Source: a virus
Lineage: Duplodnaviria; Heunggongvirae; Uroviricota; Caudoviricetes
DNA length: 42,931 nucleotides
Reading direction: 5' to 3' (one strand)
Virus record (IMG/VR): IMGVR_UViG_2541047844_000013
Coordinates: 1-42,931 of that record
Each line of letters starts with the position of its first letter. The first letter of the stretch is position 1. Shown here piece after piece: positions 1,009 through 41,242 of the stretch. The translations under genes were made by a program, and so were the position numbers. Under the pieces are notes generated by a model. The model did no database searches and was not told where the DNA came from. It saw only the letters and a program-made list of their open reading frames with translations.

Positions 1009-1083
1009 GTCCTCTTAGTTAAATGGATATAACGAGCCCCTCCTAAGGGCTAATTGCAGGTTCGATTCCTGCAGGGGACACCA
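1009..1083 (+). tRNA. argW: tRNA-Arg (anticodon CCU), prophage integration target
   Basis: 75-nt cloverleaf GTCCTCTTAGTTAAATGGATATAACGAGCCCCTCCTAAGGGCTAATTGCAGGTTCGATTCCTGCAGGGGACACCA; anticodon loop CUCCUAA; T-arm GGTTCGATTCC; terminal CCA. Confidence 0.9.
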
Positions 1084-1244
1084 TTTATCAGTTCGCTCCC
1101 ATCCGTACCAGTCCGCAAAATCCCCTGAATATCAAGCCTTCCGTAGATTCACAGTTCGTCATGGTTCGCGTCAGATCGTTGACAGCCGCACTCCATGACG
1201 GGTAAAAAGTGGATAAAATAATTTTACCCACCGGATTTTTACCC

Positions 1245-2402
1245 ATGCTCACCGTTAAGCAGATTGAAGCAGCAAAGCCGAAAGAAAAACCATACCGCCT
1301 TCTCGATGGTAATGGCCTGTACCTTTATGTCCCTGTGTCAGGGAAAAAGGTATGGCAGCTTCGCTACAAGATTGACGGTAAGGAGAAAATCCTGACCGTC
1401 GGGAAATATCCGCTTATGAGTTTGCAGGAGGCAAGGGATAAAGCATGGACCGCGAGGAAAGACATCTCGGTTGGCATCGATCCGGTAAAAGCGAAAAAGG
1501 CTTCGTCTAACAACAATTCCTTTAGCGCCATTTACAAGGAATGGTACGAGCACAAGAAGCAAGTATGGTCAGTAGGGTATGCGACTGAACTTGCAAAAAT
1601 GTTTGATGACGACATTTTACCTATCATCGGCGGCCTTGAAATTCAGGATATTGAGCCGATAAAACTGCTGGAAGTAATCCGCAGATTTGAAGATCGCGGT
1701 GCAATGGAGCGAGCCAACAAAGCCCGCAGAAGATGCGGAGAGGTTTTCCGTTACGCTATTGTCACTGGTAGGGCTAAATATAACCCGGCACCTGACCTTG
1801 CTGACGCCATGAAGGGATACCGCAAGAAGAACTTCCCGTTTCTCCCAGCAGACCAGATCCCTGCATTCAACAAAGCACTGGCAACATTTTCAGGAAGCAT
1901 CATATCGCTCATTGCGACCAAAGTTTTACGCTACACAGCCCTAAGAACGAAAGAGCTTCGCTCCATGCAATGGAAGAACGTCGATTTTGAAAACAGGATT
2001 ATCACTATCGACGCCAGTGTGATGAAGGGCCGCAAAATTCATGTGGTCCCGATGTCAGACCAGGTGGTTGAACTTCTCACTACGCTAAGCTCAATCACCA
2101 AACCAGTCTCAGAGTTTGTTTTTGCCGGGCGCAACGATAAGAAGAAGCCAATCTGCGAGAACGCGGTTCTACTTGTGATCAAACAAATCGGCTATGAGGG
2201 TCTGGAAAGCGGTCACGGATTCAGGCATGAATTCAGCACGATTATGAACGAGCACGAATGGCCTGCTGACGCTATTGAAGTGCAACTTGCACATGCCAAC
2301 GGCGGATCTGTGCGTGGAATTTACAACCATGCTCAGTATCTCGATAAGCGCAGAGAAATGATGCAGTGGTGGGCGGACTGGATTGATGAAAAGGTGGGCT
2401 AA
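1245..2402 (+). CDS. intS: Tyrosine integrase, P4 family (IntS-like); the upstream in-frame ATG at 1209 is less likely
   Basis: 385 aa from MLTVKQIEAAKPKEK; N-terminal arm-binding domain and C-terminal catalytic domain pattern; sits immediately 3' of argW as intS does in K-12 KplE1. Confidence 0.88.
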   Translation: MLTVKQIEAAKPKEKPYRLLDGNGLYLYVPVSGKKVWQLRYKIDGKEKILTVGKYPLMSLQEARDKAWTARKDISVGIDPVKAKKASSNNNSFSAIYKEWYEHKKQVWSVGYATELAKMFDDDILPIIGGLEIQDIEPIKLLEVIRRFEDRGAMERANKARRRCGEVFRYAIVTGRAKYNPAPDLADAMKGYRKKNFPFLPADQIPAFNKALATFSGSIISLIATKVLRYTALRTKELRSMQWKNVDFENRIITIDASVMKGRKIHVVPMSDQVVELLTTLSSITKPVSEFVFAGRNDKKKPICENAVLLVIKQIGYEGLESGHGFRHEFSTIMNEHEWPADAIEVQLAHANGGSVRGIYNHAQYLDKRREMMQWWADWIDEKVG

Positions 2403-2493
2403 CCAACGCTATATCTCAGATAGCACAAAGCCTTGCAATCCAGTGCAAAGCTTTGTGTGTCTCAGTTTTGCCTCATAGGTAACTCTGTGTTAA

Positions 2494-2793
2494 CTACGAT
2501 GCAAGAATCCATACCAATAAGCATCCGATAATTGGGAAAGAAAAATCCAACAAACTTCCCACATCCCACACGCGTGGATCAAAACCTCCCCACCACGGCA
2601 TGTTGACACGTTTCCCTTTCCCAAACTTTTCTATCCAGCGATATTCTGCCTGGGTGTGTTCACGCGCAATGAAGAACGTACAACCGGCTATCGCACCGTA
2701 AGCCCAGTTTCCGGTAAAAATACCAACCAGTACCTGAGCCGCAAAAGCGCAAAGCGAGTGAAGAAATGGAGTGACATCAATGCTCTTAATCAT
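2494..2793 (-). CDS. Small hydrophobic membrane protein, unknown function (occupies the oac/gtr lysogenic-conversion position)
   Basis: 99-aa ORF with hydrophobic N- and C-terminal segments; located between int and tailspike; no family recognised. Confidence 0.4.
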
Positions 2794-4847
2794 GAAACTT
2801 CCCCATTGGTTGAAAATATGGCTCCTCCAACTCCAAGTGTATTTCGTGTTGTGCTCAACCTAAGAGGGCTGGAGTCAGAATTAGAATATCCTGTAGCAGA
2901 AATAAAAGATCCTCCACTAATAGTCAACTGCGGAACATCGGCTATATCTGAATAAGTTCTGTCAGCAACAGTATTATTTATAGCCACATGTGATCCAAAA
3001 AAACTTCTTATTGTTTGGTTTTTAACTTTACTTCCTTCAATGGTTATCCTACTACCACAGTCAGCAATAAATCCTGAATCTGCATCCAGCGTTGCATTCA
3101 TAAAAGAAGCTTCAGATCTCTCTACATCAATCCATCTAATATCTTTTGTGGGATTTGCACCAAATACATGACAAATATTAGAGTTAAACCTTACACCATC
3201 TTGGAGGTGCATTAATTTTTTTATATCTGTACCCCATAGCCTTGGAAAATTAACAGATGCTCCTGCATGGCAATCAAATCCCAACTCAGCCCCTGAGATA
3301 TCTACAGCCTTTCCTGAAATAACAGCACCAGTGTCTGCATTAACGGCTGTTCCACAATTGCGCATATCATTACCAGCAATATCAACACAACTCGCACCAT
3401 CAATACGCACACCAAGTGCACATCCATAAAAACCTTTTTCAATATTTGGTTCAAGGACTTTACCACTTGTTTCTGCATCACTTTCTTCAACGTCATGTCG
3501 TCTTGCATCAACATATGCTGTATGAATGCAGGTTAATCCACGATATGAGCAATGTATAGTTTTATGGTCGCGTATATTAACATTTGAACCATCTCTTACA
3601 TTCCATCCTATATAACAATAGCTTGCACTTGACCCCTGAAAATCTGCTTTAACATTATAAATACAATTAACTGACGCAACCGTACTCTCTGTGCACCGTT
3701 CAAACTTGCTTACAGGCATTGATGCCTTGACATTATTTACCAGTTGCAGGGAAGAGTATCTGCTATAAGAAAAATCACATACGTAATACCCTTCTGGCAT
3801 ATATGCAGCAACACTTTCCTCATCAGGAGCACATCCGGTATGATATGCACTAATTTTTGCACCAAAGCTACCATGAATTCCAACGTAGAACTTTCGAGCA
3901 CCTGAATACGGATAGAAATTAAGTTCAGCTTTTTGAGTTACAATAAATGCACAAACATCGCTATCATCTCTATTTTCTTCAATCTGAATAGCAAATACAG
4001 GACTTTTTGCTGCATCGCAAATGTAAAATAAATATTTGTATTCGTAATACGTCCTAACAGTTTTAGTAAACAAACTGGTATCAGAGAAAACCACTGAGTC
4101 TTCTGATATTATTTTAATCCATGATAAGTCACATCCTGCTGAAATTTCTATTTGCTCATTGAGCACAAAACCGGAAAGAATTTTAATTATGCAAAAGTCA
4201 ATGCCATTTTTCCATAGTGGACGCAGTGCAACAGCCGAGTTTAGAGCATCACTAATAGATTTAAAATTACCATATTCCCCAACTGTTATTGTGAATGCAT
4301 ACCTGGAATTAAATACTGCGGCACTCTCTCCAGAGTTAATAGCTGCAGATATCATGTCATAATTTGATATAAAATCATTTGGCGTGATTATTTCTGCGTT
4401 TTTATTGTGCTGTGTTCTAAGTTTTGAATTTACATGAACACTTTTAACTGCAATACGGGAGTCGTCAACAAGTATTTCATTACCCTCTGTTGCTAACTCT
4501 TGTCTTAACTGATCCGGGTCATACTTCAGCACATTCGGAAAATTGAACTGCTGTGCACCATACGCATCATAAACAGCCATAGAATGGCCTTGCTCAGTTA
4601 CGAATTTGGCAATCTGTCCGTTATATACAGGATAACCAGCAGCGTTAATGATGATTGGTTGCGAAACAGGAACGTGAGAGCCGTCTTCGTTCTCTACATA
4701 AACCTGAATCTGGTTTTCAGGATTTACCGGGTCAGTGTCAATTTTACCGATATAAATTTTGCCATTGGCTACGGCTTTAAAAGAACGCGCCATAGTGAAG
4801 AGTTGCGAAGGCATACTCACTACAACATTGGCTGTAATGTCTGTCAT
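2790..4847 (-). CDS. Tailspike protein: P22 gp9-like N-terminal head-binding domain fused to a different receptor-binding/depolymerase domain
   Basis: First ~110 aa ([43 protein letters not shown]...VLKYDPDQ) match P22 gp9 N-terminus from memory; the remaining ~570 aa do not resemble P22 gp9. Confidence 0.88.
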
Positions 4848-4915
4848 TTAATTTGCTCCAGGTACAAGGAATCGCCGCAGCATTGCCACAGTGATGCATT
4901 ATTAATCAAACAAAG

Positions 4916-4930
4916 AGACCACTGTGGTCT
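4916..4930. promoter_or_regulatory. Candidate Mnt operator: 15-bp inverted repeat AGACCAC-T-GTGGTCT between mnt and tailspike
   Basis: Perfect 7-bp arms around a central base; resembles the P22 Omnt CCAC-GTGG core as I recall it; lies in the 146-bp divergent intergenic region. Confidence 0.5.
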
Positions 4931-4993
4931 TATTGAGGATGCAACCAGCAGATAATAAGATGCCGATCCACTCACAAAAGCGAGGCATCAAGA

Positions 4994-5245
4994 ATGGGAA
5001 GAGATGACCCGCAATTTAATCTGCGGCTACCTTACGAATTAAAGGAAAAACTAAAACAGCGAGCCAAATCCAATGGCCGCTCTCTTAATTCAGAATTAGT
5101 TCAGATAGTGACTGATGCTGTATCAAAGCCATCCAAAATTTCAGGCTATCGAGACGATGCGGAACGCATCGCTGATGAGCAGTCTGAACTTGTTAAGAAG
5201 ATGGTGTTTGATACGCTGAAGGATTTGTACAAAAAACCCACCTGA
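4994..5245 (+). CDS. mnt: Mnt repressor (ribbon-helix-helix, Arc/Mnt family)
   Basis: 83 aa; MGRDDPQFNLRLPYELKEKLKQRAKSNGRSLNSELVQIV...ERIADEQSELVKKMVFDTLKDLYKK is near-identical in pattern to P22 Mnt; Gln at the position of Mnt His6. Confidence 0.85.
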   Translation: MGRDDPQFNLRLPYELKEKLKQRAKSNGRSLNSELVQIVTDAVSKPSKISGYRDDAERIADEQSELVKKMVFDTLKDLYKKPT

Positions 5246-5261: not shown

Positions 5262-5681
5262 TTAGTCTTGCTTTGTTGATGGTATAAGAGATGCGTTTGC
5301 CTCTTTTGGCTTCAAGGTATACATCCCACCATTAAAAGGATCTACAGCAAGCCAACCAATTAACCCACCAAACACAAGGTTTCCACCAATATACCAACCA
5401 TTAGCATTGGCTTTGATTGGCAGGGTAACTGGTTCGTACCCATCCTTTTCCATAGTGATCTGGTAGCTCTTTTTGCCAAAATAACTACCATCTGACTTGG
5501 CAAGAGTTACTCCTTGCGGAGTCTTACCTTGCGCAACAATCACGCCGGATTCGTCTTTTACCTTAAAGCTCGCACCGGAAGGATTGCTGTTCACTTGCAC
5601 AAGCTGTGTTTCGTCACCAACAATAGTTGCGCACCCAGATAACAATATAGCGCCAGCAACGACGCCGATAATCCTCTTCAT
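5262..5681 (-). CDS. Lipoprotein, PEGA-like domain, unknown function (accessory gene)
   Basis: Signal peptide with lipobox LLSGC; PSGA motif; 139 aa; in the immI-equivalent region between the ejection genes and the tailspike. Confidence 0.6.
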   Translation of the reverse strand: MKRIIGVVAGAILLSGCATIVGDETQLVQVNSNPSGASFKVKDESGVIVAQGKTPQGVTLAKSDGSYFGKKSYQITMEKDGYEPVTLPIKANANGWYIGGNLVFGGLIGWLAVDPFNGGMYTLKPKEANASLIPSTKQD

Positions 5682-5815
5682 ATTACTTTCCGTTTTGTTA
5701 GAATCAGAAAGATCTTAATAATAAAAAGTATTTTCGTGAAGATATTGTCGATTGAGTTAATAACTCATTTACACCCAACAGTGCCATGATGGCAAAGATA
5801 AGGAGAGTTAATCAT

Positions 5816-6301
5816 ATGAAAAAATCACTGTTAATTATCCCGCTTCTGCTGGCAGGGTGTGCAAAGGTTAGCGACTATCAGGCAAGTTGCGAACAACGCT
5901 ATCCAAAGCTTAGCGATATGGCTAATTGCCTTGATGCTAGCGTGAAGAGCGACTCACGCATGGCATCAGCACCAACACCTAAGTTGTATGTCCTTGCTGC
6001 GAAGATGCTCGGGCAAGGTGTCGATGATGGCAAGATAAGTGACGCGCAGGCAAGACTTGAGCTTCAGAATCTTTATGTTCAATTACAAAGCCAAGAACAA
6101 GCCCAACAAATAGCACAAAGCCAAGCATTCCAGCAGGCTTTATTGAATTATCAGGCTGTAAACACAATGCAAGCTATCGAGCAAAAAGCGCGCCAGCCTG
6201 TTATAACTCAACCTTACCCAACACGCGTTGACACTTACACAAACTGCAATTCAGGGTTTGGAAATACAGTCACATGCAACAGTAGCAGTAACATCAGATA
6301 A
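5816..6301 (+). CDS. Lipoprotein with Q-rich central region, unknown function (accessory gene)
   Basis: Start chosen at MKKSLLIIPLLLAGC (lipobox LAGC) with AAGGAGAG Shine-Dalgarno 8 nt upstream; divergent from the 5262-5681 gene. Confidence 0.6.
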   Translation: MKKSLLIIPLLLAGCAKVSDYQASCEQRYPKLSDMANCLDASVKSDSRMASAPTPKLYVLAAKMLGQGVDDGKISDAQARLELQNLYVQLQSQEQAQQIAQSQAFQQALLNYQAVNTMQAIEQKARQPVITQPYPTRVDTYTNCNSGFGNTVTCNSSSNIR

Positions 6302-6391
6302 CAATCAGCAAAGGTATCGCCTATGCAGAGGGATACGATAAACCTCGCGTTCTACATATTTGGTTTTTGCACGTTCCTGGTGTTTGAAAAG

Positions 6392-8389
6392 CTATTCTGA
6401 CAACGCATCAGACTTAGCCCCCTGAGTAAGGGCGTTAATGGCCTTTTGCGCCTGCTGCATGGCTTTCTCAAACGCTGTTGATCCGCGTGGGGTGTTTGCC
6501 ATTCGGAGCATTGCATTTCTGAATGGCTCGCTCTCATAGGCGCGAGTAAGAAGTCCGTAGCTTACTGCTGCGCCAGTTGTAGCCGGGTTCATTGCCGTCC
6601 CATACCCAATTATGAACGGGATAGTTTGCTGCCCTGTGGGTGTTGTTACTGCCGCTTTTGCAGCCTGCTGCGTGGATTGCAGGTAGTTTTTTAATCCTTT
6701 CAGATAAGCAGCGTCCTGCCCCTTAAATGTGATGCCAGTCTGGTTTTGCAGGATGTTAAGCTGCCGAAGGAACTGGTCAGGGGATCCGCCAGATTTCTCC
6801 ATCGCCTTTCCAATGATGCCATTGCGCATTTGCGTCCTGCCAACACGACCAACTGAGTTATACAGAGTCTTAATTTCCGATTTGTTCTTGCTGAATAGCA
6901 TGTTGTTGACAACTTCCGGCGTCAGGTCGCCTTTCATGAGAACATTCTTCAGCCTGGTATTCTTTAGTTTCGCCGCTTCGTCAGCGTAGACGGCATTGGC
7001 CTGCTGATATTTACGGAGAGTATCGTTGCCAAGATTCTGACCAATGGCACCATTGATATCGTCGGTCATTGCCTTGTAAACGCGCTGAATGGCAGCATCG
7101 GAACGGTTTGGTAACACTGGTCGCTCACCTTTCACGTCCATTCTGAACTGGCTGCGCAGGTCGCTTAATTGCTTCAAATCCAGATTTACCGGACCATCAG
7201 GACCAGCATTGCGAACAAGCTCATCACGATATGACTGAAGTTTTGAAATTGTCTCGTTATCAGCTACCTTACCAAGCTTCTGCAGATTAGATATTTCTGT
7301 ATCAATCTGCTGAATTGCTCGCGCAGGCTGAATGTTTACTCCAGCCATAGCATTCTGAACCTGCTCCAGTCGATTACCGGCGGCACGACGAATTCCTGAT
7401 GTTTTCGCTTTAAGGCTGTCAATAACAACCGCTGGATCATACTCACCGAATTTATCGGCAAATCTCTGCACCAACTGGCTTCTCGCTTCCTGTTGCGTTG
7501 CTCTCATTCCGCTTGTGCCAGCCAGAGGGATATTTTCTGCTGTAGTCTGCGCCATTTTTCCGACGCGGGAAGTGGGTTGTAACAGGTCTGTGGTGTGCAG
7601 AGGAACTCCTTCACGCTCTGCAAATCTGATAGCCTGCTGCGCTTCTGGCGCAATAGCACCACGAACGCCACGATAAGCAGCACCTAATCCACGCCCGGCA
7701 GCGTTAATAGCAGCGCCAGCAAGTACACCAACGCCTAAATCGGTGGCGAGTGCTTCCGCATCATCTTTCGCACTATTTGCAGCAAGTGATCCAACTGCGT
7801 TTTCTGCTAGAAGGCGAGTTGCCCCCTGAGCAATTCGACCAGCAAGTGTTGGTGCCTGTACCGCCGCTCTCTCAACGCCAGCAGGAGTGAGGTAAGGCAA
7901 TGCTTCAGCAAATACCTTTCCCTCTGTCGTTTGTGGAGTCAGCGCACCTTGCTGAAGGCCAAAGTCCTGCTCTAATCCCTGCGTTGTTACTCGTGGTGCT
8001 GGTTGATATGTACCATCGCCAATACCGAGTTTACCGCCAGCCCAAGCCGCCGCGCTTGTTACAGCATCGGCAACTGATGCAGGTATGTTTGCCACGTTCA
8101 CGCCAGCCTGCACCATTCCGCGACCAGTCTCTTTTACTGCTTCGCCAAGATCAGACATAAATCCACTTTGCTGTGGTTGTTGCTGTGCTACTGGTTGCTG
8201 TGTCTCCACTGACTGCACAAATGGCAATGGATAGGCAGCATAGAAAGCTTGCTTAGCCTGCTCTGCATTTTCTCCGGCTTGCGGGGCCACGACTTCATTG
8301 AAGTATTGCTCCTGAGCCTGCGCTTTTTGTTCTGGTGCTAACGCCTGATACTGTGGAGAGGCGATAACATCTTTCCATGCTTTAGCCAT
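6392..8389 (-). CDS. Ejection (injection) protein, P22 gp16-like
   Basis: 665 aa; position and order (14-7-20-16) downstream of the tail needle as in P22; Ala/Gln-rich composition typical of ejection proteins. Confidence 0.7.
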   Translation of the reverse strand: MAKAWKDVIASPQYQALAPEQKAQAQEQYFNEVVAPQAGENAEQAKQAFYAAYPLPFVQSVETQQPVAQQQPQQSGFMSDLGEAVKETGRGMVQAGVNVANIPASVADAVTSAAAWAGGKLGIGDGTYQPAPRVTTQGLEQDFGLQQGALTPQTTEGKVFAEALPYLTPAGVERAAVQAPTLAGRIAQGATRLLAENAVGSLAANSAKDDAEALATDLGVGVLAGAAINAAGRGLGAAYRGVRGAIAPEAQQAIRFAEREGVPLHTTDLLQPTSRVGKMAQTTAENIPLAGTSGMRATQQEARSQLVQRFADKFGEYDPAVVIDSLKAKTSGIRRAAGNRLEQVQNAMAGVNIQPARAIQQIDTEISNLQKLGKVADNETISKLQSYRDELVRNAGPDGPVNLDLKQLSDLRSQFRMDVKGERPVLPNRSDAAIQRVYKAMTDDINGAIGQNLGNDTLRKYQQANAVYADEAAKLKNTRLKNVLMKGDLTPEVVNNMLFSKNKSEIKTLYNSVGRVGRTQMRNGIIGKAMEKSGGSPDQFLRQLNILQNQTGITFKGQDAAYLKGLKNYLQSTQQAAKAAVTTPTGQQTIPFIIGYGTAMNPATTGAAVSYGLLTRAYESEPFRNAMLRMANTPRGSTAFEKAMQQAQKAINALTQGAKSDALSE

Positions 8390-21519: not shown

Positions 21520-21992
21520 ACCTCAATCTCTCTGACCGTTCCGCCCGCTTCTTTGAATTTTGCAATCAAACTGTCAACCTTATGCTCGAACTGACCGTAA
21601 CCAGCCCCCGGCAGTGAAGCCCAGATATTGCTGCAACGGTCGATAGCCTGACGAATATCACCGCGATCAATCATCGGTAAAGCGCCACGCTCCTTAATCT
21701 GCTGCAGTGCCACAGCGTCCTGGCTTTTGGGAGAGAAGTCTTTCAGGCCAAGCTGCTTGCGGTAGGCATCCCACCAACGGGAAAGAAGCTGGTAGCGTCC
21801 GGCGGCTGTTGATTTGAGGTTGGGGTTTAGCGTGACAAGTTTGCGAGGGTGATCGGAGTAATCAGTGAATAGCTCTCCGCCAACAATGACGTCATAACCA
21901 TGATTCCTGGTTTTCTGACGTCCGTTATCAGTTCCCTCCGACCACGCCAGCATATCGAGGAACGCCTTACGTTGATTATTGATTTCCACCAT
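21516..21992 (-). CDS. R: Endolysin, lambda R-type lytic transglycosylase
   Basis: 158 aa; near-identical from memory to lambda R ([51 protein letters not shown]...). Confidence 0.92.
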
Positions 21993-22299
21993 CTTCTACT
22001 CCGGCTTTTTTAGCAGCGAAGCGTTTGATAAGCGAACCAATCGAGTCAGTACCGATGTAGCCGATAAACACGCTCGTTATATAAGCGAGATTGCTACTTA
22101 GTCCGGCGAAGTCGAGAAGGTCACGAATGAACCAGGCGATAATGGCGCACATCGTTGCGTCGATTACTGTTTTTGTAAACGCACCGCCATTATATCTGCC
22201 GCGAAGGTACGCCATTGCAAACGCAAGGATTGCCCCGATGCCTTGTTCCTTTGCCGCGAGAATGGCGGCTAACAGGTCATGTTTTTCTGGCATCTTCAT
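21976..22299 (-). CDS. S: Holin, lambda S-type, with dual-start Met-Lys-Met motif
   Basis: 107 aa; [34 protein letters not shown]... as in lambda S107/S105. Confidence 0.92.
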
Positions 22300-22541: not shown

Positions 22542-22617
22542 TGGTGCTGGTTAACGGACTTGAACCGCTACCCATTCGCTTACAAGGCGACTGCTCTACC
22601 ATTGGAGCTAAACCAGC
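22542..22617 (-). tRNA. Phage-encoded tRNA-like gene, predicted anticodon UGU (Thr)
   Basis: Minus-strand 76-nt sequence folds by hand into a cloverleaf: acceptor GCTGGTT/AACCAGC, D-arm GCTC-CAATGGTA-GAGC, anticodon loop CTTGTAA, T-arm AGCGG-TTCAAGT-CCGTT, discriminator A plus CCA. One mismatch in the anticodon stem. Confidence 0.55.
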
Positions 22618-22622
22618 ATGTT

Positions 22623-22697
22623 TGGCGGGACAGCGTGGGCTCGAACCACGATAAGAAGGTTAACAGCCTTCCGTAATGACCTTTATACGACTGACCC
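22623..22697 (-). tRNA. Phage-encoded tRNA-like gene, predicted anticodon GUU (Asn), degenerate D-arm
   Basis: Minus-strand 75 nt: acceptor GGGTCAG/CTGTCCC (one mismatch), anticodon stem-loop GAAGG-CTGTTAA-CCTTC, T-arm CGTGG-TTCGAGC-CCACG, then G-CCA; D-loop lacks the canonical GG. Confidence 0.45.
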
Positions 22698-25075: not shown

Positions 25076-25917
25076 GCCGCATCCTCAAAATTAAATCCAA
25101 GCTGACATGAAAATGCTTCACATGATTCAGAACACGAACCTGAATCATACTGTCGCATTGATGTCATTCTTGAGGCTAACTCATCTCTTGATATATCACT
25201 AAACAAGGCAATCAGTGATTTAAGTGTATTATTCCCTCGATACATAACCGGTTCCTTTCCTGTTTTTATTTCTGTATCAAGGATGTTGATAAATGCATCT
25301 GCAAGTTCTGGCTCATCCATGGCTGCCAGCGCCACCTTTTGCATACTTTTTTTTATGCAGAAAACACAATTACCAAGATGCTCCTGTATGCCAAGATCAA
25401 ATTTCTGCTCACTCCACCAATCAAGCACATCCTGTTTTTCAAAATCGCTTATATCAGCCAGGTACCGAAAACCATTAGCCCTTTTAAGCCTGTTTGGTTC
25501 ATCTGTGCGAATGCCAATCCATGTGATGTAATTTCCTTTCCCAAACTTTTCCTGACAATATTTGGCGAATGGAACAGACTTCATTCTGTCGGTACAGAAC
25601 GCACCGCCGATATATGGATGTCCGTATTTATTTAACATCCTTTTCCACGGTATAAGATCTGGACCAATATCATTGACACCTATCTCTTCATAACTACTGG
25701 CCTTCCCCATTTCTGGATTAGGTATTACACGAAGGCAATGTAAGTCTATTTTCCAGTTACTGACGATATTTCGGATGAACTCATATGTTTTAGGGTGCTC
25801 TGCCCCTGTATCCATGAAAACGTAATGCACGTCTTCACCTGTCTGTCGCTTTTGCTCCATTAGCCAGAGCAAATATGCTGACGTCCTGCCACCTGAGAAA
25901 CTAACGACATTTATCAT
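25072..25917 (-). CDS. ninC: PAPS-reductase-fold (PP-loop) protein in the ninC position
   Basis: From [22 protein letters not shown]...: SGGxxS PP-loop motif; C-terminal Cys cluster ([14 protein letters not shown]); start set at the internal Met overlapping the dam stop. Confidence 0.7.
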
Positions 25918-41154: not shown

Positions 41155-41227
41155 AATAGCGGGTAAAATATTTCTCACATCTAAAAAACATCATTCCAAT
41201 CAATCCCCTGCCGCGTCAAGTAGATGT

Positions 41228-41242
41228 CTGCAGGGGACACCA
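41228..41242. repeat. attR core, direct repeat of the argW 3' end (CTGCAGGGGACACCA)
   Basis: Exact 15-bp match to 1069-1083; flanks diverge on both sides. Confidence 0.75.

Follow-up and report, generated by a model that had tools for sequence, protein, structure and literature searches.

The DNA analysed here (the window) is a stretch of 42,931 nt from a tailed virus, IMG/VR record IMGVR_UViG_2541047844_000013, positions 1 to 42,931, and the region of interest within it is the right end of a P22-like prophage of about 40 kb at Escherichia coli argW. Two adjoining genes occupy this region, one encoding the tailspike and the other a membrane protein of 99 aa that fills the interval between the tailspike and integrase genes:

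2494–2793, minus strand: open reading frame (ORF) of the 99 aa protein, with an ATG start and a 4 nt overlap (ATGA) at the stop codon of the tailspike
2790–4847, minus strand: tailspike ORF of 685 aa with an ATG start, a real gene with these boundaries
4503–4847, minus strand: N-terminal head-binding (virion adaptor) domain of the tailspike, aa 1–115, Pfam PF09008
2790–4502, minus strand: receptor-binding module of the tailspike, aa 116–685 plus the stop codon, of low G+C content and predicted to form a right-handed parallel beta-helix

The tailspike is an ordinary two-module receptor-binding protein, in which recombination near codon 115 has joined a conserved P22-type adaptor to a horizontally transferred module of low G+C content, predicted to be a beta-helix. 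The Pfam profile Head_binding (PF09008) is matched over its whole length by residues 1–113 (E-value, 8.7e-65) and is the only Pfam domain detected in the protein; structure and sequence searches place this segment at 86–90 % identity to the corresponding part of Sf6 gp14 and about 70 % to that of P22 gp9. At the nucleotide level the head-binding part, and this part only, is 91–94 % identical to HK620, Sf6 and CUS-3, and the identity to these phages and to epsilon34 stops near window position 4507, at about codon 114. When the PDB was searched by sequence, the tailspike aligned only over residues 1–160 (Sf6 gp14, E-value, 9e-70) or 1 to about 116 (P22 gp9), with no match beyond residue 160, and the G+C content drops from 0.43 to 0.32–0.40 across positions 2850–4650, the binding module. 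The restriction of the domain match to PF09008, the limit of PDB coverage, the end of DNA identity and the fall in G+C content together indicate that the chimeric layout is real, and bear out the initial annotation, which had described a P22-type head-binding domain on an unrelated receptor-binding region. The tailspikes of P22 (gp9), Sf6 (gp14), HK620 and CUS-3 have the same PF09008 domain and a right-handed beta-helix body of the kind predicted for the window protein, and P22-like tailspike genes occupy the same genome position, with the ejection-protein genes and mnt ahead and int on the far side. Their bodies have no detectable sequence similarity to residues ~116–685 of the window protein, however, and give Foldseek TM-scores of 0.12–0.24; Sf6 and the window tailspike do have in common an RTQH(D/N)KN motif where the helix domain begins.

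An AF2 (AlphaFold2) model of the tailspike, built on an alignment of module homologues, is all-beta, with predicted local distance difference test (pLDDT) scores mostly ≥90 from about residue 180. The best Foldseek match to the module body is the tail protein of Staphylococcus phage Andhra (8egr_A, TM-score 0.47–0.52), followed by the tailspikes of Sf6, P22 and CBA120, WceF, PL6 lyases and pertactin, with GH28 enzymes also represented. From the model, the module is confidently predicted to fold as a right-handed beta-helix, which, with the head-binding domain, agrees with the P22-like (gp9) tailspikes. Tailspikes of that family are homotrimers that act on O-antigen or capsule as endoglycosidases, lyases or esterases. 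The putative activity of the module is most likely to bind and to cleave or deacetylate a surface polysaccharide, and it is plausible that the predicted glycan specificity differs from those of the relatives named above, given the different binding domain.

The module is uncommon, with only 24 homologues among protein clusters formed at 90 % identity, and the tailspike is present in about seven of 5426 complete E. coli genomes, among them CB7286, PCP07083, MS 198-1, FORC_082 and EC332. The module is carried on four types of N-terminal adaptor, namely head-binding, Tail_spike_N, tail-collar fibre and T7 tail fibre (PF09008, PF18668, PF12571 and PF03906), including those of P2-like, T7-like and siphovirus types, and it is found in P2-like prophages of Aeromonas as well. 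Two relatives of the module have an added SGNH esterase domain; in the P22-like contig L165 the tailspike carries this binding module and a C-terminal GDSL/SGNH esterase. Identity over the module is 99.6 % to phages JEP4 and HZ41, 97 % to 92CQ, 89 % to HEMP4 and 47 % to VEc3. Phage 92CQ shares the module only, and its homology stops at the tailspike stop codon (window position 2786). JEP4 (MT740315, genes 20–21) and HZ41 encode a tailspike 97 % identical over its full length and have the same gene order, and the JEP4 protein encoded downstream is 100 % identical to ours over all 99 residues; JEP4 differs in having another integrase and a larger region before mnt, with a C2-type repressor, Rha and KilA. 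The JEP4 and HZ41 proteins are annotated as tail spike protein and hypothetical protein, and the literature on JEP4 that we found treats the phage only phylogenetically. The module is thus already known in databases and in sequenced phages, uncharacterised, and is not new. It adds one further documented exchange of a binding module: in Escherichia and Aeromonas viruses of the podo-, myo- and sipho- types, one and the same beta-helix is found joined to four different adaptors. Such an exchange is useful for predicting and engineering host range and is unsurprising. The small gene is the more useful lead, being conserved, prevalent and unannotated, and standing in unusually strict order beside receptor-binding genes.

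Our overall reading of the two genes, to which we assign a probability of roughly 55 %, is that the tailspike is a standard modular protein and that the small gene is the prophage's copy of a widespread and strongly constrained family of three-helix inner-membrane proteins, and not a conversion gene specific to this locus. The ORF is a real gene under strong purifying selection. Its product matches PHROG 1443 (E-value, 9.1e-54; residues 5–98 against profile positions 1–94 of 97) and so belongs to that family; there are 424 relatives among clusters formed at 90 % identity, and a profile search of 1.8 billion representative sequences recovered 442 family clusters at 50 % identity, all of them stand-alone proteins of about 90–130 aa with no fusions. 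Twelve residues are invariant among 80 close members; H12, R44, E45, Q48, A49, E50, W76 and P87 are conserved in a family set diverged to 28 % identity, and the motifs G-R-E-x-(A/T)-Q-A-E-Y-R-W-I and M-P-W-W-G-G-F are nearly invariant. Ratios of non-synonymous to synonymous substitution (dN/dS) are 0.13–0.26 between coliphage copies and 0.09–0.17 between copies in Leclercia. The G+C content of the gene, about 0.46–0.48, is like that of the phage backbone and unlike that of the low-G+C tailspike body. A second 99 aa ORF, on the plus strand at 2656–2955, was rejected as an antisense shadow, and the interval from the tailspike to int holds no credible ORF other than the 99 aa gene. A possible second family copy in the window was likewise rejected: of a 20 nt direct repeat (2612–2631 and 25532–25551, 95 % identical), one copy falls within the 99 aa gene and the other within an unrelated ORF of 311 aa, and the match is put down to chance, the repeat encoding EKFGKG in both places. 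The family is present in 1918 of the 5426 complete E. coli genomes, in up to seven places per genome, always annotated as hypothetical, and no functional study was found in the literature on the family (FIG00639861), JEP4 or HZ41.

The interval that the gene fills is the one in which gtrABC (P22 and KplE1) and oac (Sf6 and Sf101) reside, between the tailspike and int–att, and those genes also encode membrane proteins. This is the setting from which the initial annotation had proposed a minimal or novel conversion factor. It was right that the interval holds only the 99 aa membrane protein, with no Gtr or Oac family member, and the ORF is conserved (442 clusters of PHROG 1443); the proposal of a conversion factor peculiar to this locus did not survive, as the family is found in about one-third of complete E. 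coli genomes, behind about 10 receptor-binding types and among chromosomal orthologues. In its general form the proposal would have the protein do the work of gtrABC or oac, by altering or hiding the particular O-antigen or capsule seen by this tailspike, and the position of the gene, where P22 and Sf6 hold conversion genes, speaks for it. P22, Sf6, HK620 and CUS-3 are not among the matches listed for the family (the best 40 of 67 phage records with the gene), so that the slot may hold alternative cargo. GtrA, with four transmembrane helices, and the AT3 acyltransferases, with 10, are however both dissimilar to the 99 aa protein: there is no match to PF04138 for the protein itself or, at thresholds as loose as E≤10 and E≤1, for sets of 80 and 102 members, and no further ORF between tailspike and int that could make up a Gtr cassette, to which a GT2 bactoprenol glucosyltransferase and a serotype-specific GtrC also belong, and a protein of 99 aa with three helices and no AT3 match does not resemble an Oac-type enzyme of about 10 transmembrane helices. 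Among P22-like phages at argW, a gene in this slot has been put to experimental test only in Kapi1, where hyp24, between tailspike and int, had no effect on lipopolysaccharide (LPS) (PMC8787464). It was considered as a homologue and rejected; it is a 34 aa ORF, unrelated to the gene described here.

In 87 of 87 phage and prophage loci examined the family gene lies directly 3′ of tail-fibre or tailspike genes and on the same strand, and the preceding proteins form about 10 unrelated clusters, at least six of which are distinct P22-type tailspike bodies. Other preceding genes encode lambdoid Stf fibres and then one or two small fibre-associated proteins, and the lambdoid homologues follow these with gaps of 10–40 nt and no overlap. 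Phage 21 CPT_21_24, a 'putative membrane protein', and its homologues in Tritos, ev017 and mEp460 belong to this group, with 75–80 % identity and a position last after the side-tail-fibre genes. We note that many lambdoid loci have a conserved ORF of 89–93 aa after the Stf gene (phage 21, L002 4710–4988; Tritos, L004 2630–2911), often succeeded by a protein of 227–346 aa, the 346 aa form of which has a Peptidase_S74 chaperone domain, with the family gene last; no classical Tfa chaperone is annotated at the lambdoid loci examined. Farther afield, an Aeromonas P2-like prophage has the binding module on a tail-collar fibre, with the start of the family gene once more running into the fibre stop codon (4 nt overlap); in a siphovirus-type prophage it likewise comes directly after the receptor-binding gene; in Aeromonas phage 4_4512 it lies inside the structural operon, and in the 236 kb Aeromonas jumbo phage ACP1 among tail-fibre genes. 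Prophages of Comamonas and Acidovorax have it between the fibre genes and the lysis cassette. In Comamonas nitrativorans (L118) and Pigmentiphaga (L120) it stands between the target variable repeat (VR) of a diversity-generating retroelement (DGR) and the avd, template repeat (TR) and reverse transcriptase (RT) elements, with a 119 nt VR/TR pair that is 89 % identical. This retroelement, at L118 4788–8057 and in L120 (Pigmentiphaga humi), has an mtd-like target gene, with the VR at 5813–5931 and the TR at 6700–6818; its avd-like and RT-like genes were identified by eye from the sequence only.

The same order could be taken to mean that the protein is a membrane-located helper in the assembly or maturation of functional fibres or spikes, since the gene invariably comes after whichever receptor-binding or fibre-chaperone gene is last; this is so even for 4_4512, where it sits partway through a structural operon, and for the jumbo phage and the DGR cassettes. 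We regard this as very improbable. There is no domain common to the neighbouring receptor-binding proteins on which such a helper could act, P22-type tailspikes are not known to need a membrane factor for folding or attachment, and chromosomal orthologues have no receptor-binding gene nearby. Two phages with the same binding module, the T7-like L164 and 92CQ, moreover have no family gene. Nor does the small gene travel with the module: the window copy is 89 % identical to that of phage Gally, which has a different binding domain, and 51 % identical to that of the Aeromonas locus L162, which has the same one. Judged by these comparisons, the identity of the family protein follows lineage and not binding domain, and co-transfer of the small gene with the module was rejected beyond close relatives. 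These relationships also count against a conversion gene matched to one tailspike, since copies with 77–90 % identity stand behind binding domains of about 10 unrelated kinds, among which are the side tail fibres of lambdoid phages and the target protein of a DGR. Unlike gtrABC and oac, the family is independent of binding-domain type and is found in virulent phages and chromosomes too.

The AF2 model of the 99 aa protein (pLDDT 91) has three helices, at residues 8–27, 30–56 and 78–98. The loop at 44–77 averages 5.5 Lys and Arg residues across the family, against about 0.3 in the remaining non-membrane segments, and by the positive-inside rule this charge predicts a topology with the N-terminus in and the C-terminus out, which would place the GRExxQAEYRWI and MPWWGGF motifs at the cytoplasmic face of the membrane. 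Pfam, NCBIfam and PADLOC, queried at permissive thresholds with the single sequence and with sets of 80 and 102 members, gave no relative, and PADLOC-DB gave no defence-system match at E≤1. A search of the PDB with the family profile found no relative either, the only matches in these searches being transmembrane similarities at noise level (the PhoR N-terminus, cytochrome b561 and Phage_holin_8), and comparison of the model with known structures gave no specific fold neighbour. An hhalign comparison of the family with E. coli DgkA, a small enzyme with three transmembrane helices (the DgkA query sequence was entered by hand), showed no relation.

Three transmembrane helices in about 100 aa recall a class I holin, and an accessory holin, antiholin or other lysis-timing factor has to be weighed. 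In its favour, the Comamonas and Acidovorax copies are directly upstream of holin, endolysin and Rz/Rz1 genes, the copy in contig L165 is the last gene of an endolysin–holin operon, and two family members have weak matches to Phage_holin_8 (E-value, ~0.003). The prophage, however, has its own complete lambda-type S/R/Rz/Rz1 cassette 18 kb away, and hhalign gave a probability of only 0.7 % for a relation between the family and the prophage S holin. The class I holin lambda S has three transmembrane helices with the N-terminus out and the C-terminus in, a charged C-terminal tail, and a gene that accompanies the endolysin gene; the predicted topology of the 99 aa protein is the opposite, and its C-terminal tail is of about two residues and uncharged. 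In E. coli phages, moreover, the gene stays with the tail genes and not the lysis genes, and its conservation is far above what is usual for holins. The protein is thus not the main holin of this prophage, and we consider a lysis function improbable. In contig L165 the relevant genes (5559–6858, minus strand) are a GH108 endolysin gene, a gene for a 161 aa protein and one for an 87 aa short-form family member, convergent to the tailspike gene; by eye the 161 aa protein was read as a three-transmembrane holin of the gene transfer agent (GTA) type, which no scan confirmed.

Cellular copies of the family were found in several settings. Four Aeromonas species share the gene order polB, a gene of unknown function, pirin, the family gene, a RIO1-type kinase gene, two lipid A late acyltransferase genes (lpxL/M), a SLAC1-type gene and a LysR gene. 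In the Aeromonas chromosomes (L094–L098; 4983–9657 in L096) the family copy begins 67 nt after pirin and is no more than 3.5 kb from the two tandem lipid A late acyltransferase genes and the RIO1-type kinase gene. Among five Leclercia species (L101, L105, L107, L109 and L110) homology of 88–92 % starts exactly at the family gene, near position 6000, and runs into common downstream genes; the interval upstream varies, from an intact fibre or spike gene of 705–725 aa down to a 300 bp remnant. Side by side with this, a conserved 300 bp remnant of the 3′ end of a fibre gene lies at a variable distance in Leclercia, and L109 has an acetyltransferase-like gene (5491–5937, PHROG 1249). Sphingomonad copies adjoin a gene for a PhyH-like dioxygenase, and the neighbours in other alphaproteobacteria are heterogeneous. 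An argument from association, linking pirin and lpxL/lpxM in Aeromonas, the PhyH-like dioxygenase in sphingomonads and Cfa-like methyltransferase genes at three loci to membrane-lipid chemistry, was considered too weak to use. The conserved Aeromonas, Leclercia and sphingomonad settings do indicate that the family gene is kept without a functional phage around it.

Some of these loci speak for conversion. In Leclercia L107 the variable upstream interval contains two AT3 O-acetyltransferase-like genes (596–1711 and 2197–3342), and purifying selection has retained the family gene beside decayed prophage content. On the other side stand the homologues in a virulent jumbo phage and in sphingomonads, which are not known to have LPS, and the predicted cytoplasmic position of the conserved loop. 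Independence of binding-domain type, the wide differences between host envelopes and the predicted exposure of the conserved surface to the cytoplasm all disfavour a serotype-specific modifier of O-antigen, and we rate the conversion explanation as improbable.

Superinfection exclusion, in which the protein would block DNA entry or another post-adsorption step at the inner membrane in the manner of T4 Imm, P22 SieA or HK97 gp15, was also mentioned in the initial annotation. Known exclusion genes are often found beside receptor-binding genes, as are T5 llp and the cor genes of phi80 and N15, and the 99 aa protein is likewise a small inner-membrane protein encoded in that position. Its gene is independent of receptor type, and every one of several co-resident prophages carries it, as would suit an exclusion function. 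T5 Llp, Cor (phi80, N15 and HK022), T4 Imm, P22 SieA and HK97 gp15 are all small envelope proteins, and the adjacency to tail genes is Llp- or Cor-like; there is, however, no relation in sequence or fold, and no homology to any exclusion family in PADLOC or PHROG. Llp and Cor, both lipoproteins of the outer membrane, each shut off a single receptor; the 99 aa family tracks no receptor type. Fast-evolving exclusion proteins would not be expected to show such conservation, far above that of the known examples, or to have cellular orthologues in conserved synteny, and prediction puts the conserved surface on the cytoplasmic side. Like exclusion proteins, the family could act independently of the phage's own virion. 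On balance, exclusion of this kind is unlikely, if somewhat less so than conversion or lysis.

Expression signals at the locus were examined for what they say of timing, and two further elements are relevant:

4914–4932: perfect 15 bp palindrome, AGACCAC-T-GTGGTCT, in the 146 bp spacer between the divergent mnt and tailspike genes
2424–2457: hairpin with a 14 bp stem, its arms 93 % complementary, between the convergent stop codons of int and the 99 aa gene

A Shine–Dalgarno-like sequence, GGGGAAG, is found just 5′ of the start codon of the 99 aa gene, and no promoter-like or terminator-like site is present at its junction with the tailspike gene. The ATGA overlap and GGGGAAG point to translation of the 99 aa protein from the tailspike transcript, and through this coupling it would be made from a late or Mnt-controlled transcript. 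We infer late co-expression of the two genes in this window, which suggests late rather than lysogen-specific expression of the small gene; coupling to a late gene here is a further point against conversion. The palindrome is a putative Mnt operator, resembling O_mnt of P22, and if it works in the same way the proximal promoter would be repressed in the lysogen and the gene pair expressed late. The hairpin (predicted RNA folding energy, −33.7 kcal/mol; z=−3.8) has no clean T-tract; it is a probable bidirectional terminator, or may be a site of int retroregulation. A moron as defined by Juhala and Hendrix, an accessory unit transcribed autonomously, has its own promoter, a terminator behind it and a base composition unlike its surroundings. 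By these marks the signs are mixed: the window copy has the hairpin downstream, no promoter at the junction and a G+C content like that of the backbone, and the Gally copy has both a terminator-like hairpin and a promoter-like site in front.

Several observations weigh against the view that the gene is simply a tail-linked member of a constrained inner-membrane family. Phage Gally has a terminator-like hairpin and a promoter-like site between its tailspike and family genes, so that autonomous and possibly lysogenic expression may occur in some phages, an arrangement which also favours conversion. In contig L165 the family gene is convergent with the tailspike gene and last in the endolysin–holin operon; this, with the Comamonas and Acidovorax position directly before the lysis cassette, leaves room for a role in lysis timing. 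The cellular neighbours are mixed (pirin, PhyH-like, Cfa-like, DNA ligase) and point to no single pathway, and the topology, with N-terminus in and C-terminus out, is a prediction from the distribution of charge.

Within the preferred reading, of a widespread inner-membrane family carried behind receptor-binding genes, a mechanism can be proposed. Phages carry the family gene next to their receptor-binding genes, directly on the 3′ side and irrespective of which binding domain is present; the protein, with its N-terminus in and C-terminus out, would present a conserved surface rich in Arg, Glu, His and Trp (H12, R44, E45, Q48, E50, Y51, R52, W53, R62, the MPWWGGF motif and W76) at the cytoplasmic face of the inner membrane. 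This surface may engage some conserved component of the host membrane, such as a protein or a lipid-linked precursor of the envelope, and the outcome would be a receptor-independent effect on the envelope (generic exclusion, protection or fitness) with no chemical change to one O-antigen type. Such a receptor-independent envelope accessory factor, produced along with the tail proteins and acting on a conserved host component from the cytoplasmic face, is the most likely of the mechanisms considered, and we offer it tentatively, at well below even odds. A bolder version, possible but doubtful, is that the family represents a new class of inner-membrane factor linked to receptor-binding genes, borrowed from a bacterial housekeeping gene and carried by P22-like, lambdoid, P2-like, DGR-bearing and jumbo phages. 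From the cytoplasmic face it would target a conserved stage in the building of envelope glycolipids or polysaccharides, or else a conserved protein of the membrane, and would mask receptors or exclude phages irrespective of serotype, in infected cells and lysogens alike. If this were true, about one-third of E. coli strains would have between one and seven copies of a gene for envelope remodelling that has gone unstudied, and, should the family alter the envelope or exclude phages, phage susceptibility would be affected in a large fraction of E. coli.

The remaining features of the prophage are as follows:

1009–1083, plus strand: tRNA-Arg(CCT), which is argW, found by ARAGORN
1064–1083: attL core, with an attR copy at 41223–41242, a 20 nt direct repeat 90 % identical, the two 40,159 bp apart
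1209–2402, plus strand: IntS-type tyrosine integrase gene (Pfam Phage_integrase, Phage_int_M and Arm-DNA-bind_3), convergent with the 99 aa gene
4994–5245, plus strand: mnt-like repressor gene of the Arc/Mnt ribbon-helix-helix type (Pfam Arc, 2.8e-22; Repressor_Mnt, 2.2e-18)
21082–22299: complete lambda-type S/R/Rz/Rz1 lysis cassette, 18 kb from the 99 aa gene

The repeat of the tRNA 3′ end delimits a prophage of about 40.2 kb. A yfdC-like transporter gene adjoins tRNA-Arg(CCT), and the integrase gene is labelled intS in the annotation of near-identical E. coli genomes. The genes arc and ant are absent, the immI region having shrunk to mnt alone. Between mnt and a large ejection-protein-like gene there are two lipoprotein-like ORFs, one of 139 aa (5262–5681, minus strand; PHROG 6823) and one of 171 aa (5786–6301, plus strand; PHROG 6067), both of families without an assigned function; the 139 aa product has a weak PEGA match and a weak match to the Cor signal peptide. 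Since P22 has sieA and hkcC at that position, these ORFs are candidates for exclusion or conversion cargo no less plausible than the 99 aa gene. Genes for tRNA-Thr and tRNA-Asn lie inside the prophage at 22542–22697, directly upstream of the lysis cassette, and the layout of Kapi1 has been described likewise.

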